From Burkholderiales bacterium (lineage in GTDB: Bacteria > Pseudomonadota > Gammaproteobacteria > Burkholderiales > SG8-39), in NCBI GenBank assembly GCA_036374055.1, contig DASUUN010000144.1:1-42109 (forward strand): a DNA stretch of 42,109 nt, written 5' to 3'. This document shows positions 3,222-41,245 of this stretch, in pieces (positions within the stretch are counted from its first letter, which is position 1; each line of letters begins with the position of its first letter). The notes under the pieces are model-generated. The model did no database searches. It saw only the letters and a program-made list of their open reading frames with translations, and was not told where the DNA came from. Both the position numbers and the translations under genes were made by a program.

Positions 3222-3591
3222 GGGGGCGACCTGGTTTCGACGTGGGCAACGAAGCAGCGCAGGGCATGCCGAGGACCAGATCACCTCGCAAATCCAGTCT
3301 GGAAACACTACAAACGCCAACGACGAGCGTTTCGCTCTAGCCGCCTAACACCGGCTAGACGCTGCACTGGTCTGCTGATGGGCCAGGCCCAGTTCATCGG
3401 GTGCAGCGTCATTCACATCAGCCTCTCTCCCGGGCTTGGCCGCTTGGCCCGGGGGATCCGTCGAAGCGGCTAGCCGCGCGTCAGCCTGCCGGTGGGCGGG
3501 CGCAAGGCGAAGCTCAAACCACCAGGCTAAGCATGTAGTCCTGACTGCCTAGGGTCTACGGACGCGGGTTCGATTCCCGCCGCCTCCACCA
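3222..3591 (+). ncRNA. ssrA: tmRNA (transfer-messenger RNA, SsrA)
   Basis: 5' end GGGGGCGACCTGGTTTCGACG and 3' end GGACGCGGGTTCGATTCCCGCCGCCTCCACCA (tRNA-Ala-like acceptor and T arm). The internal tag ORF GCC AAC GAC GAG CGT TTC GCT CTA GCC GCC TAA (3316-3348) encodes ANDERFALAA. Confidence 0.95.
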
Positions 3592-24468: not shown

Positions 24469-24807
24469 ATGAAACGTTCACACAAGACAGCAGCCGGGAT
24501 CGTCGCCGCTTTGAGCCTGGGCGTCGCCGCGGCGGCATTCGCCCAGCCGGGTCCTATGGGCGATGGCAACGGCCCACACGGCAAGATGCGCGGGATGCAG
24601 CATGGCGCAATGGGCCATGGCGCAGCGGGAATGGGCGCCGGCCAGTCGCTCATGACTCCGGAGGAGCGGACGGCTCTCCAGGAAAAGATGCACAACGCCA
24701 AGACAGCCGAAGAGCGCCAGAAGCTGGCGCAGGCAACGCACGAAGAGATGCAGAAGCGCGCCAAGGAGAAGGGCACCACCCTTCCCGAGCATACGCACGC
24801 GCATTGA
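24469..24807 (+). CDS. Small periplasmic Met/His-rich protein, tentatively Spy/CpxP/ZraP-like (LTXXQ-type)
   Basis: Signal MKRSHKTAAGIVAALSLGVAAAAFA, then the Met/His tract GPMGDGNGPHGKMRGMQHGAMGHGAAGMG. A helical part follows with LMTPEERTALQEKM...EERQKLAQATHEEM. Confidence 0.6.
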   Translation: MKRSHKTAAGIVAALSLGVAAAAFAQPGPMGDGNGPHGKMRGMQHGAMGHGAAGMGAGQSLMTPEERTALQEKMHNAKTAEERQKLAQATHEEMQKRAKEKGTTLPEHTHAH

Positions 24808-24878
24808 CGCATCGGGTCAGCACGCCGGGCAGCTTCCTCTTCCCGGCGTCGCTCGCCAATGATCTGGAGATACTGACA

Positions 24879-25424
24879 ATGAAACGTTCGCGCAAGATAG
24901 TCGTCGCGGGCCTGGCAGCGCTGGGGTCGGGGCTGGCGATAGCCGTTGCGTTCGCCCATCCCAACGGCATGCATCACGGCGGTCCGATGGGCATGATGCA
25001 ATCGGGCGACGCCGCCTTCCAGGCGGACATGCAACTGGTGCACGAGATGCTGGCGGGTCACGACAAGATCAAGCGCTCGGTCGAGAACCTGCCCGACGGC
25101 ATCCGCACCGTGACCGAATCCGATGATCCTCAGGTCGCCCAGGCCCTCAAGGCGCACGTGGCGAGCATGGAGCAGCGGCTCAAGGACGGCCGGATCTTCA
25201 ATCTGTTCAGCTCGACGCTGCCGGTGCTGTTCGACAACAAGGACAAGATCAAGACCACGGTGGAAATGACGCAGAACGGCGCCATCGTCACCCAGACCTC
25301 GGCCGACGCCAAGGTGGTCGCCGCGCTTCAGGCGCACGCCGGCGAGGTCGACGAGCTGGCGCGCGACGGCATGGCCGCCATGATGCGCGGCATGCGCTCG
25401 CGCATGATGGGAGCAGCGCGATGA
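24879..25424 (+). CDS. Periplasmic protein of unknown function with Met/His-rich N- and C-termini and an internal duplication
   Basis: Signal MKRSRKIVVAGLAALGSGLAIAVAFA, then HPNGMHHGGPMGMMQ. There are two ~44-aa repeats. C-terminus MAAMMRGMRSRMMG. Its stop overlaps the next gene's start. Confidence 0.55.
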   Translation: MKRSRKIVVAGLAALGSGLAIAVAFAHPNGMHHGGPMGMMQSGDAAFQADMQLVHEMLAGHDKIKRSVENLPDGIRTVTESDDPQVAQALKAHVASMEQRLKDGRIFNLFSSTLPVLFDNKDKIKTTVEMTQNGAIVTQTSADAKVVAALQAHAGEVDELARDGMAAMMRGMRSRMMGAAR

Positions 25425-26068
25425 AGCACGCCCTGCTGCTTGCCTTGTCTCTTTCTCTTTCAGGTCCCGCCGCGGCCCAGGCGCCCCATACGCACCAGCA
25501 CAGCTTCAGCGGCGCGGAGCAGTGGGCGCACGTTTTTGATGATCCGAAGCGCGATGAATGGCAGAAGCCCCATGAGGTGATCGAGGCGCTGGCCCTCAAG
25601 CCCGATGCCGTCGTCGCCGACCTCGGCTCGGGCACGGGCTATTTCGCCGTACAGCTCGCCAACATGGTGCCCCAGGGCCGCGTCTACGGCGTGGACGTCG
25701 AGCCCGACATGGTGAAATACCTCGCCGCGCGCGCGAAACGCGAGAAACGGGACAACCTCGTGGCAGTTGCGAGCACGCCAGACGATCCCCGCCTTCCGGA
25801 GAAGGCCGATCTCGTCCTGCTGGTGGACGTCTATCACCACATCGACGATCGGGAGCGCTACTTCCGCAACCTGCGCGGCTCCCTCAGGCCTGGCGGCCGC
25901 ATCGCCGTCATCGACTTCCGCATGGACTCCCCCGACGGCCCGCCGCGGGCCGCGCGCATCGCGCCGCAGCGCGTGGTCGACGAGCTGGCTCGCGCCGGCT
26001 ACCAGGTCGCCCGGCAGCACGATTTCCTCCCCAACCAGTACTTCCTCGTGTTCCAGCCACGCGACTAA
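25421..26068 (+). CDS. Class I SAM-dependent methyltransferase with cleavable Sec-type signal peptide
   Basis: MKHALLLALSLSLSGPAAAQA signal, SAM motif I VADLGSGTGYFAV, then VYHHI and LRPGGRIAVIDF. It is a paralogue of the 4561..5175 gene. Confidence 0.8.
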   Translation: MKHALLLALSLSLSGPAAAQAPHTHQHSFSGAEQWAHVFDDPKRDEWQKPHEVIEALALKPDAVVADLGSGTGYFAVQLANMVPQGRVYGVDVEPDMVKYLAARAKREKRDNLVAVASTPDDPRLPEKADLVLLVDVYHHIDDRERYFRNLRGSLRPGGRIAVIDFRMDSPDGPPRAARIAPQRVVDELARAGYQVARQHDFLPNQYFLVFQPRD

Positions 26069-26074
26069 GCGCCA

Positions 26075-26962
26075 TCAACGTCGCGGCGGCATCGGGCTCT
26101 GGTCGCGCGGGGTGTAGACGAGCTGGAGATCGAGCTCGATGAGCCGGGCTTCGAGCGCGGAGAGATCCGGCCGGTTCTCCGGCACGCCGGTGAAGATCTT
26201 GCCGTCCGGAAAGATGGTCACCGTCTGCGTGACCGGCAGCAGCTTGCGCACGGTGGTGAGCGAAACCTGGGTGCGGTCCACGTCCGAGACGGCGAAGCGC
26301 GTCTGCTCTCCGTCCGCGTTGCCGATGAATCTGAAGATGAGGCCCAGCAGCCCCGACGTGGCGCGCCCGGTAATGCCGTACAGGTCGTCGTAGACGATGA
26401 TCCCGCCGAAGTCGAGGATGCGATAGCCGTTGAGCCGCTCGTGCGCCACCTCGACGTGCGGATCGGAAGTCTTGTCTTCGTAGAAGTAGCGCGAGGGCGA
26501 GCCGGCGGCCGGCGGCCAGCCGGCCTTGACGTTCATCGCGCGCCTGGGCACCGGGCCGCCGCGCGCGTCGGCGATCACGTTCTCCGCCCGGTGATCGATC
26601 AGGAAATCCTCGCCATGGCGGTGAGCCACCGACACGAACTTCGGCGCGGTGGCCGGCGTATGTCCCGCCACCTGCAGGAAGGCCTGGAAGTATTCCTCGT
26701 GGCCCACGCGCAGCGGCCGCCGGCTACCGTCGGCTTGCACTGCCGCGACGATCTCGAGAAACACCCCCGCCTGCAGCCTGACCGCGTTCGAAGGCGCGTC
26801 TAGCGAGTACCCCTGGCGCTTCTGCTCCTGCATCGCCTTGACGATCTCGTCCTTGGTGACTGCCCGCGCATCGTCCCAGGGCGATGCCGCCATGCAACCG
26901 GGGGCCGCGGCAGCAAGCGCCACGGCTGCCGACAGAACAAGCCGGCGCACGCCGACGCTCAT
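26075..26962 (-). CDS. Secreted protein / possible lipoprotein of unknown function (last gene of the rSAM-TIR-UbiA operon)
   Basis: ATG 26962 shares ATGA with the UbiA-2 stop. Signal MSVGVRRLVLSAAVALAAAAPGC. No family recognised. The track ORF to 27793 is an in-frame extension. Confidence 0.6.
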   Translation of the reverse strand: MSVGVRRLVLSAAVALAAAAPGCMAASPWDDARAVTKDEIVKAMQEQKRQGYSLDAPSNAVRLQAGVFLEIVAAVQADGSRRPLRVGHEEYFQAFLQVAGHTPATAPKFVSVAHRHGEDFLIDHRAENVIADARGGPVPRRAMNVKAGWPPAAGSPSRYFYEDKTSDPHVEVAHERLNGYRILDFGGIIVYDDLYGITGRATSGLLGLIFRFIGNADGEQTRFAVSDVDRTQVSLTTVRKLLPVTQTVTIFPDGKIFTGVPENRPDLSALEARLIELDLQLVYTPRDQSPMPPRR

Positions 26963-27816
26963 TTGAGGAGCCCCAGCGGCACGAAGCTCGCCACCCAGAC
27001 CAGGCGTGACAGTTTCGCGGCTCGAGCCACGGCGGCGGGTGACAGCGGCCGGCGCAGCAGGCGAATGAGGATCCCGGCCGGAAGCGCCAGCAGGGCGAGC
27101 GCGGCCACGAAATAGCTCGCCGAGGCGAGTCCGACGGCCGGCGGCACGAGCGCAAGCACGATGAAAACGGCGAGGATCGCGCGCACCAGTCGCGCGGTGC
27201 GGTCGGCGCCCAGCCGGGTGGCGGTGGTATGCAGTCCGGCGCTGCGGTCCTGATCTTCGTCCTCGAGATTGAACAGCGCCTCCTGGGCGACGATGTAGGG
27301 AAAGCTGATCGCGGCCGCGATCCATACCGCGGCGCCGGGCGGGCCCCCGGTCAGCGCGCCATAGATGAGCGCGGCCACCACCAGCAGGGCGACCGCGCCA
27401 TTGCCGAGGAGCAGGGTGTTCTTCAACCGGTACGAATACGCCCAGCTCAGGACCACGGCGCCGAGCGTGATCATGGCGAAGCCCCAGCCGAGGATCGCGC
27501 TCAGGGCGAGCGCCGCCGCCGCGAGCAAGCCGGCGAATGCCGCAGCGAAACCGCCCGATACCCGTCCGGACGGGATCGGCCGGTGGGGTTTGCCGAGCGC
27601 ATCCACGGCAAGGTCGTAGCAGTCGTTCACGACGAAGCCGAAAGCCGTGACCAGGAGCACCACGCAGGCCGCGAGGAGCGTGGGCGCGGAGACAAGCTGC
27701 GAAGGCGGCGCTGCAAGGTAGGCGCCGAGAAGCACGAACGAAGCCGCGGCGACCGGCTTCGACGGGCGCACCAGCTCGATCAGAGCCGACCACTGCCGCG
27801 TGCCGGCATGGGTCAT
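26959..27816 (-). CDS. UbiA-family prenyltransferase 2 (DGGGP-synthase / decaprenyl-phosphate PRPP-transferase-like motif pattern)
   Basis: 285 aa, polytopic. First Asp-rich motif NDCYDLAVDALGKPHRPIPSGRVS and second acidic motif NLEDEDQD. ATGA overlap with the UbiA-1 stop. Confidence 0.85.
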   Translation of the reverse strand: MTHAGTRQWSALIELVRPSKPVAAASFVLLGAYLAAPPSQLVSAPTLLAACVVLLVTAFGFVVNDCYDLAVDALGKPHRPIPSGRVSGGFAAAFAGLLAAAALALSAILGWGFAMITLGAVVLSWAYSYRLKNTLLLGNGAVALLVVAALIYGALTGGPPGAAVWIAAAISFPYIVAQEALFNLEDEDQDRSAGLHTTATRLGADRTARLVRAILAVFIVLALVPPAVGLASASYFVAALALLALPAGILIRLLRRPLSPAAVARAAKLSRLVWVASFVPLGLLK

Positions 27817-28814
27817 GAGCGCCAGCGCGTCCGGTTATAGAGGTACATCGCCAGGACCGGAAGCGCGAACGAGGCGATCATCGCCGCCGCGCCCGGCGCC
27901 TCGAGCACGGGCACGTACAGCATCGGCATGACCGCCATGCCGAGCAGGACCTGCGCCAGGCACACAGTGATCAGGCTCCTTCGGCTGCGCACGAGCCGGG
28001 TCCCGCCGAGCAGCAATAGCGCCGAGGCAGCAAGACACAGCACCACCGGCACGGCGCCCCACGGGCTGCCTGCCATCCCGGGAACCGAGCGCAGGACGGC
28101 GATCACGCACGCGAGCAGCGCGATCTGCAGCGCCAGCGCGTAGGCGAGAAGGCGCGTCGAGATGGTCACCGCATCGCCGGCGCCCGGACGCGCGCCGAGC
28201 CAGATCGCGGTGGTCCGGGCGCCCTGGGCGAAGTCATTGGCGAGGTCGCGCAACGCGCCGTGGAAGCCGTTGGCCAACAGCACGTAGATGAACACGTACG
28301 CCGTCAGCCAGAAGAGCCCCGGCGCGGCGAGCGACCCGCGCCAGAGCGCGCCCACCAGCAGCAGCGCGCACCAGCCCAGCGCCTGCAATCCGTCGGTGAG
28401 GAGCGGCCAGGCGCAGCGCTTGCCGTAGAGGTCGTAGCCCGCCAGCGCTGCAAAGGCGAGCGCCAGCATGGCGAGCGCGGCCGGCGTCGCGCCGGCATAA
28501 AGCGCGAGCGAAAAAGCGAGCGGCGGCTGCAGCAGCGCAAGCCACAGCGCGCTGCGGCGGCTCAGCGTGCCCTGCACCAGCGGCGAGTCGGCGCGCAACG
28601 GCTCGCTGCGGTCCACCCAGAGGTCCGCGACGTCGTTCAGCACGTACGCGAAAACGTGGAAGGCGAGCGCGATGAACAGCAGCGGCGCGGCGTCCCGCAG
28701 CGGCAGCTCGCCCTGCGCGCCTGCCGCGCCCACGAGCGGCAGCAGCAGCGTGAAATTCAGCGCCCAGACGCGTATGACCAGGTAGAGGCTCACGAGCCAG
28801 CGCATGCCAGCCAT
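27813..28814 (-). CDS. UbiA-family prenyltransferase 1
   Basis: Polytopic. NDVADLWVDRSEPLRADSPLVQG is the first Asp-rich motif and RDLANDFAQG the second. Start is ATG 28814 or 28805, both inside the 3' end of the TIR gene. The track ORF to 30110 is an in-frame extension. Confidence 0.8.
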   Translation of the reverse strand: MAGMRWLVSLYLVIRVWALNFTLLLPLVGAAGAQGELPLRDAAPLLFIALAFHVFAYVLNDVADLWVDRSEPLRADSPLVQGTLSRRSALWLALLQPPLAFSLALYAGATPAALAMLALAFAALAGYDLYGKRCAWPLLTDGLQALGWCALLLVGALWRGSLAAPGLFWLTAYVFIYVLLANGFHGALRDLANDFAQGARTTAIWLGARPGAGDAVTISTRLLAYALALQIALLACVIAVLRSVPGMAGSPWGAVPVVLCLAASALLLLGGTRLVRSRRSLITVCLAQVLLGMAVMPMLYVPVLEAPGAAAMIASFALPVLAMYLYNRTRWRS

Positions 28815-31800
28815 TCGTCCAGCCGGAACCGGGTCTGGCGCGCCATGCGGATCGCCTGAGCGGCATAGGCGGCGATGAACTCGCGGGTGCTGCCCGCTTC
28901 GGCCATCACCTTGAGAGGAAACACGCTGAGCCCCTCCCGCATGCCGGGGCGGAACAGGCACTGGTGGACGGCATTGTTGAAGAAGCCGAGCGTCCTCATG
29001 AACTCGTCGATCAGCGCGACGTCGGTCGTCGCCACCACCTCGCGGCGCAGCGCCTCGTCCAGCTGCTCCCGCTCCATGAAGAGGTCGACCAGATCGAAGT
29101 GCAGCGTGCGCATGGTGGCGAGCACCACGGTCAGGGCCCTGCGCAGGCCGTCGTCGGCGGCGAGCGCCGCCAGGTGCGGCCGCAGCGTGTCGAGCAGCGC
29201 GTCCGGATGGTAGAAGCCTATCGGCGCGAGCATCGACAGCAGCTGCGCGCTGCGCTCCGGCTCCCGCCCTGTGGCGGCGGCGGCGGCCAGCGCCTCGAAT
29301 AACGGCATGCCCTTCCCCTGCTTGCCGTACGCAAGACCGAGCGGCACCAGCAGGAGCTGCGCGACCTTCGGCGGCCGCGCCTCCCCCACCTGGAAGCGCT
29401 CCTCCAGGCAGCGGCGCGTCATGTCCTCGAGCATGCCCGTCCAGGCAGGCGGCGTGCGGCGCAGCAGCACCGCGAAGGACATGAGCAGCCAGATGCGCCC
29501 CCGGCTGTCGAGGGCGTCGAACATGCTCCGCAGGCGCGGCTCGTGGCGCGGGAAGTCCCGGTACGCGTGGACCGCCACGGCAAGCGCAGCGGCGCCGCAA
29601 TACACGTCGACCCCGGAGCGGAAAGCGCCCGAGACGAGGGCCTCGTCGGCGAGCAGGTCGGTCCCGGGATCGAGCAGCGCAGCGATCCGCGCAAGCACCG
29701 AGCGCTCCTGCGCCGGAATGCGGAAGAACGCCGCCGCCTCCTCGGGCGTGGTCTGCAGCATCCACTCGAGGATCGGCCGGGCGAACACCGCCGCCACCCC
29801 GCTCGCCACGACCTTGTCGACGTGGCGGCCGAGGTTCATCCGATCCAGGTGCAGGCCGTTGACCGCGAGATCGTGGAACACCTCCGCGGTCTGCGCCGCG
29901 ACCTCCTCGCTGTCGCAGTGGTTGATGTACATCGTGATGCACCAGTCGAGGACGAAGCGCATGATGCGCCAGAGCTCCAGCGGCCGGCGCCAGCTCATGC
30001 GTTCCACCAGGAACTTCACCAGCTCGTGGGTGAACTTCGGCGCATGCCGCCACACGGAGTAGAGAGTGGCGGCGGCGTGCCGCGGCTGCACCTCGGCGCT
30101 GCCTATCCATATGACGTACAGGGAGTCGCGCACCGCCCGCCGCAGCGCGTCGGAGCTGCTCAGCGCGCCGCGCAGGATCAGCTCGCGGGCGGGAGGTCCG
30201 ATGCGGAACGCGGCGCGCAACGCCGTGCGCTGCCGCTGGGCCGAGCCGCTGTCGAGGAGCGCCTTGAGAATCTGCGCGGCGCGCTCGCGCTTCACTTCGT
30301 CCAGCCTCACCAGGCTGTCGCTCGCGAGCTCGCGCAGCGCCGCCTCGGGCGCGCCCGCGAGCTGCAGGTACAGCTCGAGCGAGCCCTTGTCGGACAGGCT
30401 CTTCATCACGAGCAGCGTGACCGCGGCATCCCAGGCCAGCGGGAAGCGGCCGGACTTGTGCACCAGCTCCGCGAGGAGGGCTTGCGCCGGCTCCCTGCGT
30501 TGCGCGAGCGAAGTCGCGAGCGCGTAGGCACCCACGAGCGGATAGGCGAACTTGAGCAGATCCTGGGTAAAGAGGCCCTCGCCTTTGACCTCGAGAAGCA
30601 CGCCCTGGTCGAGCAGGCGCGCATAGCTTGCGTCGGGCTGGGCCGCGTTGATGGCCGGACCGAGCACCGGATGATCGAACAGGCTCGCCACCGGCAGGGC
30701 GGCGTCTTCACGCTCGTACATCGCCTGGACCAGTGCCTGGACGAACCGTTCGTCCTCGGGGCGCTGCAGGCGCTGCTCGTAATAGCGCCGGAAGACCAGC
30801 GTATCGGGGCGTGGCAATACCCGCTGCCCGGCGCCGGGCCGATACGCGTCGGCCAGCAGGCGCAGAATCAGCGGCGAGCGCAGGCGGACGGCGAGCGTCG
30901 GCGGCAGCTCCGGCAGCGCGAACGGCAGCTCGAAGCGCGCGCGGTAGCGCTCGAACGCGGCGGCGGCCTCCTCCTCGGTAAAGGCGCCGAGCACGAGCGG
31001 CTCGCCGCCGCGGTGATAGCGCTCGCCGCTCATGGCGGGCCGGCCGACGCGGTCCAGCCGTTTCCAGGCCGGCGTGCTGCAGGTCAGGACCAGGCGCACA
31101 TTCTTTCCAGGCAGCCGGGAGACCAGCTTGTCGACGCACAGCAGCAGCTGCCTTTGCCCGTCACCGTTGCCGCCGCGGAAGTCGTTCAGGGCATCGATGA
31201 CGATGAGCACGCGCAGGCCGCCGCGGCCGGCCAGCTCGTCGAGGTAGTCGAGCGCGGGCCACAGGGCGGTCGGGTCGCCGAGGTTCAGGTCCTTCCGCAA
31301 CTCGCTCTCCATGTCGGCCGTGGTCAGCCGCTCGCCCGCGAACATGAAAACGGCATGCCGCCTGGCGGCCTGCGCCGCGGACCAATGGCACAGCAGGCTG
31401 GTCTTGCCCATGCCCATGTCGCCGAGGACCACCAGGGCCCGGGCGTCGCCCGCGAGAAACTCGTCGAGCTCGCGCTCCTCCGCGGCCCGGCTCACGTACA
31501 GCGCCGGCTCATAGACGGCGACCGCGCCCGGCCTGGGCGCGAGCGACTCGAGGAACCTCGAGCGCTGGCGCTCCGCCATGGCCGCCACATCCTCCCAGCT
31601 CGCCTGGCGGCGCAGCAGCGCCGCCTCCATGGACCGCACGCCGACGTCCTGCGGCAGGCTGCTGCGGGTGCGCTCCGGAAGGTCGTCCAGCCTCACGCCC
31701 CTGCCCTTCTCGATCCTGCGCAGCAGCTCGGCCAGGCTCGACTCGTAGAGCGCGGGATCCGTGAAATCGAGGTAGTGCCTTGCCTCGAGGTCCAGCGGAC

Positions 31801-32089
31801 GGTCGGCATCCTTCTGCACCAGCAGGGGCACCACGTACTTCTCCTTGCGCAAGGCGCGCTGCAGCTCGGCCCGACAGATGCGCGAGCCGTACGCCTCCTT
31901 CGTCAGCAGCGCGACCAGGCCGTCGCAGCGGTCGATGGCGCGCTCGATCTCGCGCGACCAGTCATCGCCTCCTTCGATCTCCGCCCGGTCCCTCCACGGC
32001 TCGTGCCGGCGATCGCGCAAGTCCGCTTCCAGCCGCTCGGCCAGCGCCGCGCCGTCGCGCCGTGCGTACGAAATGAACAGGCTAGCCAA
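28790..32089 (-). CDS. TIR domain - STAND P-loop NTPase (NACHT-like) - alpha-helical (HEAT/ARM-like) repeat protein, 1099 aa
   Basis: N-terminal bacterial TIR: SLFISYARRDG...DGLVALLTKEAYGSRICRAELQ, with a putative catalytic Glu75. Walker A GDMGMGKT at 31423-31400 and Walker B LRVLIVIDALND. The Leu/Ala-rich helical C-terminus is about 750 aa. TTG start with GAGGGAG upstream. Confidence 0.85.
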   Translation of the reverse strand: MASLFISYARRDGAALAERLEADLRDRRHEPWRDRAEIEGGDDWSREIERAIDRCDGLVALLTKEAYGSRICRAELQRALRKEKYVVPLLVQKDADRPLDLEARHYLDFTDPALYESSLAELLRRIEKGRGVRLDDLPERTRSSLPQDVGVRSMEAALLRRQASWEDVAAMAERQRSRFLESLAPRPGAVAVYEPALYVSRAAEERELDEFLAGDARALVVLGDMGMGKTSLLCHWSAAQAARRHAVFMFAGERLTTADMESELRKDLNLGDPTALWPALDYLDELAGRGGLRVLIVIDALNDFRGGNGDGQRQLLLCVDKLVSRLPGKNVRLVLTCSTPAWKRLDRVGRPAMSGERYHRGGEPLVLGAFTEEEAAAAFERYRARFELPFALPELPPTLAVRLRSPLILRLLADAYRPGAGQRVLPRPDTLVFRRYYEQRLQRPEDERFVQALVQAMYEREDAALPVASLFDHPVLGPAINAAQPDASYARLLDQGVLLEVKGEGLFTQDLLKFAYPLVGAYALATSLAQRREPAQALLAELVHKSGRFPLAWDAAVTLLVMKSLSDKGSLELYLQLAGAPEAALRELASDSLVRLDEVKRERAAQILKALLDSGSAQRQRTALRAAFRIGPPARELILRGALSSSDALRRAVRDSLYVIWIGSAEVQPRHAAATLYSVWRHAPKFTHELVKFLVERMSWRRPLELWRIMRFVLDWCITMYINHCDSEEVAAQTAEVFHDLAVNGLHLDRMNLGRHVDKVVASGVAAVFARPILEWMLQTTPEEAAAFFRIPAQERSVLARIAALLDPGTDLLADEALVSGAFRSGVDVYCGAAALAVAVHAYRDFPRHEPRLRSMFDALDSRGRIWLLMSFAVLLRRTPPAWTGMLEDMTRRCLEERFQVGEARPPKVAQLLLVPLGLAYGKQGKGMPLFEALAAAAATGREPERSAQLLSMLAPIGFYHPDALLDTLRPHLAALAADDGLRRALTVVLATMRTLHFDLVDLFMEREQLDEALRREVVATTDVALIDEFMRTLGFFNNAVHQCLFRPGMREGLSVFPLKVMAEAGSTREFIAAYAAQAIRMARQTRFRLDEWLACAGS

Positions 32090-33611
32090 ACGCCGGCTCC
32101 CTCGTCGGCTGCGCCAGCTCGCTCACGTCCTCGGCGATCCGCCCCCGGGCGTCGGTCAGCAGGGTCGGCGTGAAATGCCGCTCGTATCGGGCATCGACGC
32201 GGAACGCGGGCCGATAGACCGCGTCCAGCGCTTCGGTTCCCGCCACGTGCGTGCGGCGCGCGCGCGCCGCCCACAGCCTTCGCGCCGAAGGCGCGGTGAA
32301 CAGCGCGGGCGCGCACAGCAAGACCGCCCCGCTCAGTGCGATGAGCATCTGCGTCCGGTTCAGATGCTTGCGGTAGCGGCGGAAGAAGCGCGCGGAATGC
32401 GCCAGCACGCGCCGGCGGTAGCCGCGCAGGCACTGCAGCCCGCGGACGAACTCCGCGGCCTCGCCGAGCGCACCGAAAGGCTGCAGGCTGATCGTCGTGC
32501 CGTCCATGTCGCGAAGCGAAGTGTTGGGCAGCAACGTCCCGCCCGCCAGCGACTCCCGGAAGAAGGGCGTGCCGAGCATCGGAATGGGGATGGAGATGTA
32601 GCTCGGCAGAGTGATCTCGGCGGTGGAAGCGATGATCTCCAGCTCGGCGCGCAGGTCGGCCAGCCGGCGCTTGCCGATGTCGAACATCATGCCGTAGGTA
32701 AGCGCGATGCCGGAATCCAGGCAGCGGCGAATCAGCTCGACGGGCTGCAGCCGGGTGTTCTGGCCCTTGTTGAAGCGGCGCAGCCACTGCGTGTCGAACG
32801 ATTCCACGCCGGTAAAGAGCGCTTCGCAGCCCGCGTCCTTCGCGAGCGCGAGATTCTCCTCCTTCAGGAAGAAGTCGCCCGTGACGAGCGCCGCCCACCC
32901 CCGCAACAGCTTCTGCTCCCTGAGCTCCTTCAGCAGCCCGAGCCTGGCGATGAAGTAGTCCCGGTCGTTGCCGTAGAAATTGTTGTCGAGGAATACGACC
33001 ATTTGCCTCGGTCCTTGCGCCACGATCTGGCGCCGGATGTCGTCGAGCGCGTACTTGCCGTAGGGCTGCCGTTGCGCGGTGAGCGTGCAGAAGGAGCAGC
33101 GGAAATTGCAGTTGCGGCTGCTTTCGGCGTACCCGACGCGCCCGATCCAGGGCGCGAGATCGAAGCGCGGCCGCAGGTGGGCGGCCGCGAAGCCTTCGCC
33201 GAACGCATCGCGCACCACTTCGCGAAGCTGCTCCACGTCGCCGGAGCAGCAATAATCGAAGAACCGCGCGCATAGGGCAGGCAGCACGCGAACCAGCGGC
33301 CCGCCGGCCACGACGATGACCCGGGGATTCCTGGTCCGTGCGTAGGCCGTCACGTGCAGCATGCGATCGAACGCCGTATTCATGCCGGTGAGCACCAGCA
33401 TGTCGGGCCAGCCGAGCAGCCCCTCGTCCTCCAGCGGCCCGCTGTAGAGCTCGCTGTACACCTTGACATCCCAGCGCTCCGCCGGGAACGCGCCGGCCAG
33501 CCAGACCGGCGCCATGGCCTGCGGAATCTTGTGGGTGCGCGCGATCGACAAGCGTGTTTCGTCGAAGTAGCAATTGACGATCAGAGCACGCTTGCGCTCA
33601 CCGGCGCCCAC
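32082..33611 (-). CDS. B12-binding-domain radical SAM protein (class B rSAM-like)
   Basis: The N-terminal Rossmann-like cobalamin-binding-type region (ALIVNCYFDE...MLVLTGMNTAF...VIVVAGGP) precedes CNFRCSFC (CX3CX2C, 33110-33087). GTG start with GAGGA upstream. Its stop overlaps the TIR gene's start. Confidence 0.8.
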   Translation of the reverse strand: MGAGERKRALIVNCYFDETRLSIARTHKIPQAMAPVWLAGAFPAERWDVKVYSELYSGPLEDEGLLGWPDMLVLTGMNTAFDRMLHVTAYARTRNPRVIVVAGGPLVRVLPALCARFFDYCCSGDVEQLREVVRDAFGEGFAAAHLRPRFDLAPWIGRVGYAESSRNCNFRCSFCTLTAQRQPYGKYALDDIRRQIVAQGPRQMVVFLDNNFYGNDRDYFIARLGLLKELREQKLLRGWAALVTGDFFLKEENLALAKDAGCEALFTGVESFDTQWLRRFNKGQNTRLQPVELIRRCLDSGIALTYGMMFDIGKRRLADLRAELEIIASTAEITLPSYISIPIPMLGTPFFRESLAGGTLLPNTSLRDMDGTTISLQPFGALGEAAEFVRGLQCLRGYRRRVLAHSARFFRRYRKHLNRTQMLIALSGAVLLCAPALFTAPSARRLWAARARRTHVAGTEALDAVYRPAFRVDARYERHFTPTLLTDARGRIAEDVSELAQPTREPAFG

Positions 33612-33629
33612 ATCATCCTCCCGGCGCGA

Positions 33630-33693
33630 TTATCCGCCAATCCGCACGCCAGGCTGTCTCATTCGAGCTTTATCCGTTAGTCCGTGGTCCGTG
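33630..33693. promoter_or_regulatory. Candidate operator repeats in the 96-bp divergent region between the rSAM operon and the TauD-like gene
   Basis: TTATCCGCCAATCCG (33630-33644) and TTATCCGTTAGTCCG (33670-33684) match at 12 of 15 positions and lie exactly 40 bp apart. A tandem GTCCGTG GTCCGTG sits at 33680-33693. Confidence 0.3.
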
Positions 33694-33707
33694 GTGAAAT
33701 AGCGCGC

Positions 33708-34562
33708 ATGGCAATCGAGTTTCATTCGCTGTCCTACGCGCTCGGCGCGGAGGTCCAGGGCCTGGACATCCGCCGGCCGGTCTCGGGCGCCGACTGGGAG
33801 GCCGTGCACCAGGGGTTCCTGAAATACGGCGTGCTGCTGTTTCGGGGCCAGCGCCTCACGCGGGAGCAGCACATCGCCTTCAGCCGCCTGTTCGGCGAGC
33901 TGGACCGGCACGAATCGCTGCCGCTGGACCGCGACCCGCAGCATCCCGAGCTGCTGATGGTGACCAACGACGCCAAGCCCGACGGTACGCCGTCGAACTC
34001 CCGCTACACCGGCCAGATGTGGCACTCGGACATGTCCTTTACGCTCGCTCCGGCGCTCGGCTCCCTGCTGCGCGCGGTCGACGTGCCGCCCGTGGGCGGC
34101 GATACGATGTTCGCCAACATGTCCCTGGCTTACGAGGCGCTTTCTCCCGCCATGCAGCGCATGCTGGAGGGCCTGCATGGCATTCATCACTCCGAGCGGA
34201 AGAATTCGGGGATGTCGGCGCAATGGGAGGCGGAAAACCGCAAGCGCAATCCGCCGGTCGCGCAGCCGCTCGTCCGCGTGCACCCGGAGACCGGCAGGAA
34301 GGCGCTCTACATCGGCGAGAAGGTCAAATGCCTCGAGGGCCTGACGCCGGAGGAAAGCCAGCCGATCCTGGATTACCTGGTGCGCCACGCGACCCGGCCC
34401 CAGTTCGTCTATCGGCACCGGTGGCAGACCGACGACCTGCTGATCTGGGACAACCGCTGCACCTGCCACCTCGCGCTGGGTGATTACGACCCGACCCGGC
34501 GGCGCCACCTGGAGCGCACCACCGTTCTGGGCACGGCTTCCGGCTATCATGTAGCCCCATGA
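33708..34562 (+). CDS. TauD/TfdA-family Fe(II)/2-oxoglutarate dioxygenase
   Basis: GAEVQGLDI...LLFRGQ.LT.EQHIAFSRLFGEL, the HxD facial-triad region WHSDMSF, then GGDTMFANM and WDNRCTCH. Typical of the taurine dioxygenase family. Confidence 0.9.
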   Translation: MAIEFHSLSYALGAEVQGLDIRRPVSGADWEAVHQGFLKYGVLLFRGQRLTREQHIAFSRLFGELDRHESLPLDRDPQHPELLMVTNDAKPDGTPSNSRYTGQMWHSDMSFTLAPALGSLLRAVDVPPVGGDTMFANMSLAYEALSPAMQRMLEGLHGIHHSERKNSGMSAQWEAENRKRNPPVAQPLVRVHPETGRKALYIGEKVKCLEGLTPEESQPILDYLVRHATRPQFVYRHRWQTDDLLIWDNRCTCHLALGDYDPTRRRHLERTTVLGTASGYHVAP

Positions 34563-35932: not shown

Positions 35933-37054
35933 CTAACGTCGATTGCGCGCGCAGCGGAACCCCACGTCCTCGCCGCGATTTTTCGGGTGGGCGTAGAACC
36001 GCCGGCTCGCGGTGATGCGATCCGCGGGGTCGCGCCAGCCTCCGCCGCGGATCGTCCTGCTGACGTTTTCGTCGTACCAGTCGGCCACCCATTCGGCGCT
36101 GTTGCCCGCCAGGTCATGGATACCGAACGGGCTCGCGCCGGCCGGATGGCTGGCCACGGGCTTGAGCCCGCCTTGGTACGCGCCCGGCGCGCTGTTCCCG
36201 AAGTTCGCCTGGACGGGAGTGGGCGGCGAGTCGCCCCACGGATACTTGCGCGCGTCCGTGCCGCGCGCCGCCTTCTCCCATTCGGCCTCCGACGGCAGGC
36301 GCTTTCCTGCCCATACGCAGTAGGCGCTTGCGTCGTGCCAGTCCACGCCGATCACGGGAAGGCTCGCGTCTTTGGCGAGATCGAGCGCCTCCCAGCCGTC
36401 GGGAAGCCGGACCGAGCCGGTCGCCTCGACGAACTTTCCGTACTGCGAAACCGTGACCTCGTGCCGGTCGAGGCGGAAGGCGTCCAGGTAGACCTCGCGT
36501 TGCGGCGAGTTCTCGTTATCGCCCATCGTGAAGGTCCCGGCGGGAACGAGCACCATGTCCGCCCCCTCCCCGCCTTGGCGGGTCGCAAGCCAGGCGCCGG
36601 TCGCGATCAAGCCTGCCAGCAGCGGCACGGCCGCCTTTATCACCCAGGACCGCCGGCGCTGCCGGCCTATCCGGTGCACCGTGTGCGCCACGGTAGCCGG
36701 GACATTGCCCTCCGGCTGAAGGAAGGTGACCGACTTGAGGAAAGGCGAGATCGAGTCGAGCGGCGTTGGACGCAGCAGCACGGGCAGGAGCTTGCGCGCG
36801 GGATGCTTCCACGTCTTCTCGGCGATCTCCGCCTCCGTCAGCGTGTAGCTGCCGGCATCCAGCGCTTCGGGGCTGATGAGGAACACCAGCAGATCGGTCT
36901 GCTCGATGGCGCGCCGTATCCGGGCGTGGTATTCCTCTCCCGGAGGCAGGTCGTCGCGGTCGAAGAATACGTCGTCGCCCTGCGCGCGCAGCGCGAGCTC
37001 GATGGCCCGCGCCGTGGCGCGGTCCTCGGATGCGTAGCTGAGGAATACCTTCAT
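35933..37054 (-). CDS. TIR domain - single TM helix - FGE-sulfatase (SUMF1/formylglycine-generating-enzyme-like) domain protein
   Basis: N-terminus KVFLSYASEDR...DLLVFLISPEALDAGSYTLTEAEI is a bacterial TIR. RQRRRSW precedes the hydrophobic VIKAAVPLLAGLIATGAWLA. The C-terminus shows MVLVPAGTFTMGDN...HEVTVSQY...GKRLPSEAEWEKAARG...HDLAGNSAEWVADW...GFRCAR, which is an FGE-sulfatase domain. Confidence 0.85.
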   Translation of the reverse strand: MKVFLSYASEDRATARAIELALRAQGDDVFFDRDDLPPGEEYHARIRRAIEQTDLLVFLISPEALDAGSYTLTEAEIAEKTWKHPARKLLPVLLRPTPLDSISPFLKSVTFLQPEGNVPATVAHTVHRIGRQRRRSWVIKAAVPLLAGLIATGAWLATRQGGEGADMVLVPAGTFTMGDNENSPQREVYLDAFRLDRHEVTVSQYGKFVEATGSVRLPDGWEALDLAKDASLPVIGVDWHDASAYCVWAGKRLPSEAEWEKAARGTDARKYPWGDSPPTPVQANFGNSAPGAYQGGLKPVASHPAGASPFGIHDLAGNSAEWVADWYDENVSRTIRGGGWRDPADRITASRRFYAHPKNRGEDVGFRCARNRR

Positions 37055-40527: not shown

Positions 40528-41121
40528 TTATGCGGCGTGCTTGCCCGGCTGCCACCCCTGTTTCGCGAGGTAGCGCTCGCCGACCTCGGTCGGCTCCTCC
40601 TCCAGCGGCGTCGCCATGGTGTCGTTCCAGCGGTTCATGAAGCCGAACAGCGAGATGACGCCCACGATCTCCACCATCTGCCCGTCGCTCCAGTGCCGGC
40701 GCATGGCGGCGAACATCTCGTCGGTGACATCGTTGGGCACCGAGCCGGCGGCGAGCGCGAAGTCGAGCGCCAGGCGCTCGGCTTCGCTGTAAAGCGGGCT
40801 GGAGCGGTAGTCCCAAAGCGCGTCGAGCTTCTTCTCGTCCACGCCGAGCTTCGCCGCGCCGCCCACGGTATGCGCCATGCAGTACCGGCAGCCGGCCGCG
40901 CGGCTGGCGAAATGCGCCAGCAGCCGCTTGAAGCCGCGGTCCACCGCGCTTTCGGGATCCCATACCGCGGCGGCAAGCTGCGCCAGCGCCTGCACCATCT
41001 TGGGCCGGCGCTGCATGATGAGCACGCTGTTGGGGATGAAGCCGAGCGACTTCTCGTACTGCGCGAAAGCCGCGCTCAGGCTGGGATCGGCGTCCGCGGG
41101 CAATGGCGCAAGTCGGGGCAC
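40528..41121 (-). CDS. Carboxymuconolactone decarboxylase (AhpD-like) family / peroxidase-related protein
   Basis: 197 aa. SRAAGCRYCMAHT is a CxxC motif in the AhpD-like fold context. First gene of the CMD-Bug-FAH operon. Confidence 0.75.
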   Translation of the reverse strand: MPRLAPLPADADPSLSAAFAQYEKSLGFIPNSVLIMQRRPKMVQALAQLAAAVWDPESAVDRGFKRLLAHFASRAAGCRYCMAHTVGGAAKLGVDEKKLDALWDYRSSPLYSEAERLALDFALAAGSVPNDVTDEMFAAMRRHWSDGQMVEIVGVISLFGFMNRWNDTMATPLEEEPTEVGERYLAKQGWQPGKHAA

Positions 41122-41245
41122 GTCGCGTCTCCTTCGGAGGGAGCCCCAAGATACCGCGCCGCCCTCAGGGGAGGGTTTCGCATTTCAGTCGGCTGAGAAG
41201 AAATACATTGCTGCACAGCCGCAAACACGCTGAGATAGAGGCCGC

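Follow-up and report, generated by a model that had tools for sequence, protein, structure and literature searches.

A TIR-type STAND gene tied to a pair of UbiA prenyltransferase genes: a candidate NLR-like switch in a Burkholderiales bacterium

In the current view, a bacterial NLR-like STAND protein is a receptor that works as a single protein and recognises phage proteins by direct binding. The TIR, SIR2, CHAT, trypsin-like and EAD domains found in Avs and bNACHT, and in the conflict systems that Aravind described, act as effectors of death or conflict and do not regulate pathways. Here, a stretch of 42,109 nucleotides from a Burkholderiales bacterium (GenBank assembly GCA_036374055.1, contig DASUUN010000144.1, positions 1 to 42,109; hereafter the window) was analysed, in which a gene for a TIR-STAND protein is preceded by a gene for a B12-binding radical SAM enzyme and followed by two genes for predicted UbiA-family prenyltransferases (UbiA1 and UbiA2) and one for a predicted secreted protein (P5). 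The region is proposed, with a probability of about 0.5, to be the TIR-type member of a hitherto undescribed family of NLR-like switches, in which a STAND protein is tied to a UbiA pair and senses lipid or membrane state. We infer the function of the system, including a role in defence, from sequence.

A first-pass annotation, made from the letters of the window, had described five minus-strand open reading frames (ORFs) running head to tail, and all five were found as given below, together with the domains of the TIR-STAND protein.

32082-33611, minus strand: B12-binding radical SAM gene, 509 amino acids (aa)
28790-32089, minus strand: TIR-STAND gene, with a TTG start at 32089
31700-32089, minus strand: TIR domain (residues 1-130), Pfam TIR_2 1.2e-24, putative catalytic Glu75 in SRICRAEL
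30944-31504, minus strand: STAND (NACHT-like) NTPase (residues ~196-382), Walker A GDMGMGKT (K229), Walker B LIVIDALND (D299)
28790-30649, minus strand: C-terminal helical (HEAT/ARM-like) solenoid (residues 481-1099, ~620 aa), all-helical in the AlphaFold2 (AF2) model
27813-28814, minus strand: UbiA1 gene, 333 aa from the ATG at 28814, with an alternative ATG at 28805
26959-27816, minus strand: UbiA2 gene, 285 aa
26075-26962, minus strand: gene for P5 (secreted/periplasmic protein), 295 aa

In the called frames, the GC content at third codon positions (GC3) was 0.86-0.92 for all five ORFs, so they are considered genuine genes; the GC content of the genome is ~68%. The gene junctions claimed earlier were confirmed from the sequence and the ORF coordinates. 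At the radical SAM/TIR junction (ttTGGCTAGcc), the radical SAM stop TAG is located at 32084-32082 and the TTG start of the TIR-STAND gene at 32089, and direct reading showed both to lie within the stretch TTGGCTAG. The two UbiA1 ATGs (28805 and 28814), which are in frame, precede the TIR-STAND stop TGA (28792-28790) by 16 and 25 nt, respectively, and the UbiA1/UbiA2 and UbiA2/P5 junctions are ATGA overlaps of 4 nt each. The radical SAM gene begins with a GTG at 33611, with GGAGG 5 nt upstream. The quoted motifs CNFRCSFC, FISYARRD...SRICRAEL, GDMGMGKT, LIVIDALND, NDVADLWVD and NDCYDLAVD were all present in the translations. The Pfam search that had been recommended gave B12-binding, Radical_SAM, TIR_2 and, twice, UbiA above the cut-off, with NACHT and nSTAND1 just below it.

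Conservation of the STAND and UbiA genes and exchange of effector domains

Homologous contexts were gathered by contig look-ups, a genome scan and a metagenome scan, followed by tblastn of the window proteins against all loci. The genome scan, which used a P5 pattern, yielded 4 loci, a number limited by the pattern that should not be read as a true census. Full-length relatives of the TIR-STAND protein were found to be rare, with only 21 (39-100% identity) in a search of 5.8 billion clusters.

The genes for STAND, UbiA1 and UbiA2 were found in this order in 22 of the 24 loci with enough downstream DNA. Loci with the trio ranged from 43 to 72% GC, which shows that several lineages are involved, and the named genomes among the loci were metagenome-assembled genomes (MAGs) of Rhizobacter, Rubrivivax and Ideonella. 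In the window and in all six homologous contexts with gene calls, the stop codon of the STAND gene overlaps the start of UbiA1 or lies no more than 5 nt from it. Furthermore, the identities of the STAND core, UbiA1, UbiA2 and P5 to those of the window fall in parallel, from 79/79/69/65% in L016 to 38/46/45/45% in L010, which supports inheritance of these genes as a unit. From 100% down to 33% identity, the genes for TIR-STAND, the two UbiA proteins and P5 remain tightly coupled. The suggested comparison of radical SAM-UbiA clusters across genomes thus showed that the TIR-STAND gene recurs with the UbiA pair. The five-gene unit proposed in the first-pass annotation stood in so far as TIR-STAND, UbiA, UbiA and P5 stay together, but its radical SAM gene proved to be an accessory, as it was found in six of ten decidable TIR-type loci. 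The conserved core consists of the STAND gene and two UbiA genes, and is smaller and more general than the earlier five-gene view.

Searching with the solenoid (residues 481-1099) gave 185 clusters among 1.84 billion representatives. In this family, the solenoid match is always C-terminal and is preceded by N-terminal regions of widely differing length. A Pfam scan of 37 family members detected NACHT (24 members), CHAT (15), SIR2_2 (4), TIR_2 (4) and Trypsin_2 (2), and also EAD5, EAD7, EAD8, a protein kinase (Pkinase) and BTAD. Gene neighbourhoods were examined only for the TIR, CHAT and trypsin-like types, the SIR2, kinase, EAD and BTAD types being known from family proteins, and three cassette types were distinguished:

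TIR cassette: (radical SAM), TIR-STAND, UbiA1, UbiA2, P5; the window and 12 further sequenced loci
CHAT cassette: CHAT-STAND, UbiA1, methyltransferase, UbiA2, Amino_oxidase (CrtI-like flavoenzyme); L022-L024
Trypsin cassette: trypsin-STAND, UbiA1, UbiA2, Amino_oxidase; L029

Exchange of effectors on a conserved NTPase-sensor chassis, as in Avs/bNACHT-type defence, was therefore found within this family, and such swapping of the N-terminal domain is typical of NLR/Avs-type conflict systems. The tailoring enzymes of the TIR, CHAT and trypsin cassettes (the radical SAM types, the CrtI-like flavoenzyme and the methyltransferase) are of lipid or isoprenoid type. Besides, a single ORF in a metagenomic sequence (P0219, 1366 aa) was found to join NACHT and the family solenoid to a UbiA1-like domain with 44% identity to UbiA1 of the window.

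Domain features of the STAND, UbiA and accessory proteins

The TIR-STAND protein was shown to have the tripartite layout of an NLR, with a TIR domain in which the candidate catalytic Glu is intact, a NACHT-like NTPase in which both Walker motifs are intact and a helical solenoid. In the AF2 model of the whole protein (predicted local distance difference test score, pLDDT, 82), a TIR fold was seen, the NTPase included winged-helix modules and the solenoid was all-helical. Within the TIR domain, F5, S7, Y8, S69, C72 and E75 were invariant in 21 orthologues, and the PDB profile matches included Toll-receptor-related 2, Cat1 and the SARM1 TIR. The presence of Glu in an S-x-x-C-x-x-E-L helix on a TIR fold is that expected of catalytic TIR NADases, and NADase activity is predicted on this basis. 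The NTPase matched NACHT (1.8e-05) and nSTAND1 (1.2e-05), both slightly under the Pfam cut-off, and G223, G226, G228, K229 and D299 were invariant in an alignment of TIR-STAND orthologues. Foldseek matched the NTPase part to SAMD9 (2.5e-07), NOD2 (3e-06), the plant TIR-NLR RPP1 (2.6e-05), ZAR1 (4e-05) and CED-4, and the solenoid to CAND1 and karyopherins. The solenoid, which is presumed to be a sensor or a UbiA-interaction domain, was as conserved as the NTPase (mean pairwise identity 0.50-0.54 vs 0.51).

UbiA1 is predicted to be a divergent UbiA-family membrane prenyltransferase (Pfam UbiA 5.6e-15, 55.7 bits vs a cut-off of 34.2) with approximately eight hydrophobic segments; its NDxxDxxxD motif (N60, D61, D64, D68) and D190, N193, D194, G198, T201 and T202 were invariant in nine orthologues. 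UbiA2 scored 119.4 bits against the same cut-off of 34.2 (2e-34), and in TIR-type cassettes N64, D65, D68, D72, D186, D190, G194, T197 and T198 were invariant. Both proteins combine a Pfam score above gathering level, transmembrane helices and both Asp-rich motifs, as in the UbiA superfamily, and the Asp-rich motifs of both are also retained in the CHAT- and trypsin-type cassettes. The two enzymes thus look catalytically intact and are likely to be active.

Among described enzymes, UbiA2 was closest to the archaeal digeranylgeranylglyceryl-phosphate (DGGGP) synthase (6m31), to which it aligned over its full length (PDB profile 7e-34) with both Asp-rich motifs in common. Unlike the synthase, UbiA2 has a second, divergent UbiA paralogue and a STAND switch as partners. 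The NCBIfam matches of UbiA2 to PRK12884 (5e-39) and DGGGP synthase (4e-36) were both under the equivalog cut-offs, and an assignment as DGGGP synthase was rejected (124.8 vs 296 bits for NF009521; 134.1 vs 269 bits for a further model). A GGGP synthase gene was not found near the window operon. UbiA2 also showed a profile match to 8j8j at 1.4e-07.

P5 did not match Pfam, NCBIfam or PADLOC. It is predicted to be secreted or periplasmic and not a lipoprotein; 47 homologues were found, all with a signal peptide, which was N-terminal in 29 of 29 aligned sequences, and the lipoprotein assignment is disfavoured because the Cys of P5 was not conserved among these 29. Its AF2 model had a pLDDT of 93, and a comparison of the fold with PDB and BFVD gave nothing at E <0.05; resemblances to OSBP, START and lipocalin were non-significant and were not used. 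The P5 gene directly follows UbiA2 in the 12 further sequenced TIR-type loci, and a gene for a 300-aa protein without a Pfam match follows UbiA2 beside P0020. P5 homologues were also seen alone, without STAND or UbiA genes, in an Ideonella MAG (L011, 10001-10927) among glutaredoxin, hydrolase and ABC-transporter genes, and in L096 (5416-6282) beside genes for Por_Secre_tail/PKD proteins.

The radical SAM protein matched Radical_SAM (8.5e-13, 49.2 vs 29.5 bits) and B12-binding (1.4e-08, 35.1 vs 32.1 bits) in Pfam. Its N-terminal B12-binding domain and its core with a CX3CX2C motif (CNFRCSFC, at ~residues 166-173) are those of class B (cobalamin-dependent) radical SAM enzymes, and a hydrophobic segment is located at residues 422-440. 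Its identification as PhpK, HpnJ or HpnR was rejected (NCBIfam 48 vs 600, 22.9 vs 577.6 and 15.1 vs 650 bits, respectively), as was an HpnP/HpnR/Tes-type identity on the basis of scores, and the JGI label "hopanoid C-2 methylase" carried by some homologues is unsupported. A weak match to the ladderane-lipid radical SAM model of NCBIfam was also obtained; no named equivalog cut-off was reached. In PDB, only OxsB was matched, and weakly.

A radical SAM gene of the window type is located upstream and co-directional in the window, L006 (77% identity) and L016 (83%). In L001, L005 and L017, a second type is found convergent and downstream; it has the same B12-like plus radical SAM layout, is 27-30% identical to the window type and shows 72-77% identity within itself. 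No radical SAM gene was present within 10 kb in L008, nor in the shorter flanks of L009 (4.7 kb upstream, 6.6 kb downstream), L010 (4.6 and 2.7 kb) and L003 (2.3 and 2.3 kb). The independent recruitment of two paralogous types indicates that the radical SAM step is useful but not obligatory. The window-type family itself is large (>1331 homologues), with 55-60% identity in Pyrinomonadaceae and Blastocatellia, and is common in Acidobacteria, where no TIR-STAND gene accompanies it. The acidobacterial homologues are encoded with FA_desaturase and patatin genes, and these neighbours together with the hydrophobic segment make a lipid substrate plausible for the window enzyme.

Radical SAM-(FA_desaturase)-patatin operons were observed in L014 (8001-15231) and L015 (8001-16864), where the radical SAM homologues are 55-56% identical and a gene for a Pkinase + AAA_16 (STAND-like) protein of 1235-1275 aa is located nearby in convergent orientation. 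This could be a second association of a radical SAM/lipid operon with a STAND gene, or a coincidence between related genomes. Genes of the CMD family (carboxymuconolactone decarboxylase-like) were also seen near radical SAM genes in the window (40528-41184, minus strand), L001 (17648-18220) and L015 (17007-17330), a recurrence that is probably a coincidence.

Proposed mechanism and alternative explanations

We propose that UbiA1 and UbiA2 would make a prenylated membrane lipid or metabolite, which would then be modified by the tailoring enzymes, here a membrane-associated radical SAM enzyme and periplasmic P5, and in the sister cassettes a CrtI-like flavoenzyme, with a methyltransferase in addition in the CHAT type. 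The STAND solenoid would bind the UbiA pair or its product and in this way monitor lipid or membrane state. A change in the lipid or the membrane, brought about by phage infection or by some other insult to the envelope or to metabolism, might release the switch; NTP-dependent oligomerisation would then gather the TIR domains, and the assembled domains would hydrolyse NAD+ or make a signal derived from ADP-ribose (ADPR), leading to growth arrest or death. The UbiA pair is placed on the input or sensor side because the output domain is exchangeable, across chemistries as unlike as those of an NADase, proteases, a kinase and a transcription activator, while the pair is kept in TIR, CHAT and trypsin-like loci; it may serve the solenoid either as a membrane docking partner or as a ligand maker. 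Our preference is for a guard-type system, in which the solenoid would watch a dedicated prenyl lipid or a UbiA complex. A more tentative extension, possible but held with distinctly less confidence, is that NLR-like switches of this kind sense a self-made prenyl lipid or a UbiA heterodimer and not an invader protein, with loss or alteration of the lipid triggering TIR, SIR2 or caspase-like effectors; the lipid would then be a reporter made for the purpose, through which membrane or isoprenoid integrity is guarded.

Several observations weigh against the proposed lipid- or membrane-sensing switch. TIR-STAND homologues in L020 and L027 (38-39% identity) have no UbiA genes within 10 kb, so the switch can exist without a UbiA pair nearby. 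The neighbourhoods are mostly metabolic or housekeeping and are not defence islands (ppsA/moeA in L008 and L009; TauD and transporters in the window). A tblastn search of plasmids with the STAND core gave no match and a scan of viral contigs with UbiA1 no relative, and the mobility typical of defence genes thus has no support from these searches. Many phage-protein sensors diversify, but the solenoid is evenly conserved and not diversifying; such even conservation fits a self ligand and also a purely regulatory role. Finally, the linker of P0219 is odd and 70 aa long, with an internal Met just before the UbiA part, and the ORF may be a read-through or an assembly artefact rather than a real fusion; it was kept as weak evidence.

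The largely metabolic neighbourhoods and the uniformly conserved solenoid would also be expected of a specialised lipid or isoprenoid biosynthetic cluster in which the STAND protein is a metabolite-sensing regulator in the manner of AfsR/SARP or MalT, with no part in immunity. Variation of the tailoring enzymes is likewise seen in biosynthetic clusters, and BTAD, a transcriptional-activator domain, was found in one family member and a protein kinase in another. We consider such a regulator unlikely, though deserving attention, since the outputs are dominated by TIR (with its Glu intact), SIR2, CHAT, trypsin-like proteases and EAD adaptors, and the TIR-type protein is without a DNA-binding domain in the Pfam scan. 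A lipid pathway gated by a STAND switch, one of the options of the first-pass annotation, likewise fits poorly with outputs that are mostly of death type. Somewhat more doubtful is a division of the locus into a self-sufficient phage sensor of Avs/bNACHT kind and an independent envelope-modifying defence formed by UbiA, UbiA and P5, for example by modification of a receptor or lipid carrier. Single-gene STAND defences are the norm, as in Avs systems, and the homologues without UbiA genes in L020 and L027 and the lone P5 homologues in L011 and L096 are in agreement with two separate modules. Against this, the UbiA pair accompanies the solenoid even as the effector (TIR, CHAT or trypsin-like) and the accessory genes change, the overlapping stop and start codons are conserved, and P0219 is a possible fusion protein; mere co-travel is unlikely to have outlasted so much reshuffling.

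UbiA-family enzymes can take phosphoribosyl donors, an example being decaprenyl-phosphate phosphoribosyltransferase, and UbiA2 showed the above-mentioned profile match to 8j8j; together with the intact TIR Glu, this would allow a scheme in which TIR provides an NAD-derived moiety (ADPR or a cyclic isomer), UbiA prenylates it or links it to polyprenyl phosphate and the radical SAM enzyme modifies it, giving a lipid-linked nucleotide signal or effector. Such a product is very improbable: where CHAT or trypsin-like proteases, which yield no nucleotide product, stand in place of TIR, the UbiA pair is still present; kinase or BTAD domains occur in the family as well; and the radical SAM gene is dispensable in several loci. 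For the same reason, the coupling of TIR NADase chemistry to a prenylated product, one of the options of the first-pass annotation, is unlikely as it was written, given that the CHAT and trypsin-like sister cassettes keep the STAND core and the UbiA pair. Insertion of a TIR-STAND gene by chance into an existing radical SAM-UbiA-UbiA operon might be suspected from the wide occurrence of the radical SAM family without a TIR-STAND gene, but can be practically dismissed. The first-pass annotation was right in setting it aside, as 22 of 24 loci keep the trio together, GC and GC3 were confirmed to be host-like, and the variable member of the operon is the radical SAM gene and not the STAND gene.

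Surroundings of the operon and comparison with described systems

The operon is bounded by genes in opposite orientation on both sides:

33612-33683, no strand: divergent intergenic region, 72 bp between the radical SAM and TauD starts
33684-34562, plus strand: TauD gene, divergent, bounding the operon on its upstream side
25421-26068, plus strand: methyltransferase gene (class I SAM), convergent, bounding the operon on its 3′ side

From its position only, the 72-bp intergenic region is presumed to be the operon promoter. No match to the sigma-70 consensus was found in 25900-33800, and scanning the operon for promoters and terminators gave no useful information. The plus-strand genes that converge on the 3′ end (24804-26068) encode a 206-aa protein with one hydrophobic segment and then the methyltransferase, the stop of which is only 6 nt from that of P5; methyltransferases of other families, not orthologous to that of the window, were seen in or beside cassettes in L010 and L022-L024. 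A second TIR gene (35933-37054, minus strand) is located 2.3 kb upstream of the operon; its 373-aa product is a fusion of TIR_2 with an FGE-sulfatase (SUMF1-like) domain, and the gene after it (34675-~35930, minus strand) encodes an MFS transporter. By tblastn, the TauD, convergent methyltransferase, 206-aa, TIR + FGE-sulfatase and MFS genes were not found beside the cassette in any of L001-L010, the sole exception being a TauD gene 6 kb upstream in L001, and all five were rejected as extra members.

Two extra TIR genes adjoin the P0020 cassette; these and the TIR + FGE-sulfatase gene of the window are conflict-type neighbours and were counted in favour of the proposed STAND switch. A protein with NACHT, FGE-sulfatase, TIR and guanylate-cyclase domains (P0037) was among the distant matches of the TIR-STAND search. 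Around the TIR-STAND homologue of L020 (3795-15433), a CHAT-TPR protein (1317 aa), a class-3 lipase, a 357-aa protein and a ParA/MinD + TIR protein are encoded, a neighbourhood of conflict type. At 22 kb from the window operon, a transfer-messenger RNA gene (3222-3591, plus strand; tag ANDERFALAA) was detected with ARAGORN and Rfam (RF00023, 196 bits); its surroundings showed no integrase.

Neither PADLOC nor NCBIfam assigned the five genes to a named system, and both gave matches at domain level only; in the literature searched, no paper was found that links UbiA enzymes to TIR, STAND, NACHT, CHAT, SIR2 or anti-phage systems. Within these databases and this literature, the belief expressed in the first-pass annotation that no such operon had been described holds, and the PADLOC check that it had suggested agrees with this. 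A STAND survey from 2026 does not mention UbiA, prenyl or radical SAM (PMC13581612).

The tripartite effector-NTPase-helical sensor architecture of generic Avs (AVAST)/bNACHT systems was found in the TIR-STAND protein (TIR_2, NACHT/nSTAND1, K229/D299 and an all-helical C-terminal half), and the swapping of effectors (TIR, SIR2, proteases) and the intact Walker motifs are also common to both. The Avs2 models and structure 9o4e match only a P-loop stretch of ~100 residues, and membership of Avs2 was rejected (NF041813, 31.9 vs 1000 bits, residues 215-306; best PADLOC Avs2 score 46.4 bits, residues 203-305). In contrast to Avs, the solenoid has no match to Avs sensors and is conserved instead of variable, and UbiA prenyltransferase partners are not mentioned in the Avs/bNACHT descriptions in the literature searched. 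Eukaryotic NLRs (the plant TIR-NLRs RPP1/ROQ1, NOD2, CED-4/Apaf-1 and SAMD9) have the same order of TIR, NB-ARC/NACHT and repeat solenoid; here, a HEAT/ARM-like solenoid replaces the leucine-rich repeats, and the protein is bacterial and operon-encoded with membrane enzymes. With low query TM-scores (0.14-0.21), this resemblance is at the level of modules only.

Thoeris and other TIR-signalling defences also have TIR_2 with a conserved Glu, whereas the TIR of the window is fused to its own STAND sensor. Membership of Thoeris was rejected (ThcB4, 46 vs 220 bits; PADLOC ThsB, 17.8 bits; no ThsA-like neighbour), and no SLOG or Macro receptor is present with the window TIR. The FxSxx-COOH (Fxs) system, which comprises FxsB (radical SAM/SPASM), FxsC (TIR-like) and FxsT (NB-ARC/TPR), likewise joins a radical SAM enzyme, a TIR-like protein and a STAND NTPase. 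It differs in that FxsB is a SPASM peptide maturase and the window enzyme a B12-binding radical SAM of lipid type, and to our knowledge UbiA enzymes are not part of it. Membership was rejected, as FxsC_Nterm scored 20.9 vs 130 bits and FxsB models were absent among the NCBIfam matches of the radical SAM protein.

If confirmed, the proposed switch would represent a new input logic for NLR-type immunity, the guarding of a metabolite or membrane. It would also show UbiA enzymes in a new biological role, probably bring to light a bacterial isoprenoid lipid not described before and provide a context for the unmatched fold of periplasmic P5; with four core genes, the system is compact. That an NLR chassis with swappable death effectors is locked to a UbiA pair and to lipid-tailoring enzymes suggests that its input is a small molecule or lipid, or that sensing takes place in a membrane-anchored complex. 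Its toolkit of STAND with TIR, CHAT, trypsin-like, SIR2 and EAD domains, and the FGE-sulfatase + TIR protein near the window operon, are shared with the STAND/EAD conflict systems of multicellular prokaryotes (Kaur, Burroughs, Iyer and Aravind; eLife 2020, 2021; PMC7159879, PMC8195603). The term "prenyltransferase" is absent from these papers, and the UbiA pair, P5 and the B12-binding radical SAM enzyme are new partners for this toolkit. As judged from its genes and their predicted products, the system would best be described as a conflict system of NLR-like kind whose prenyltransferase partner is without precedent.

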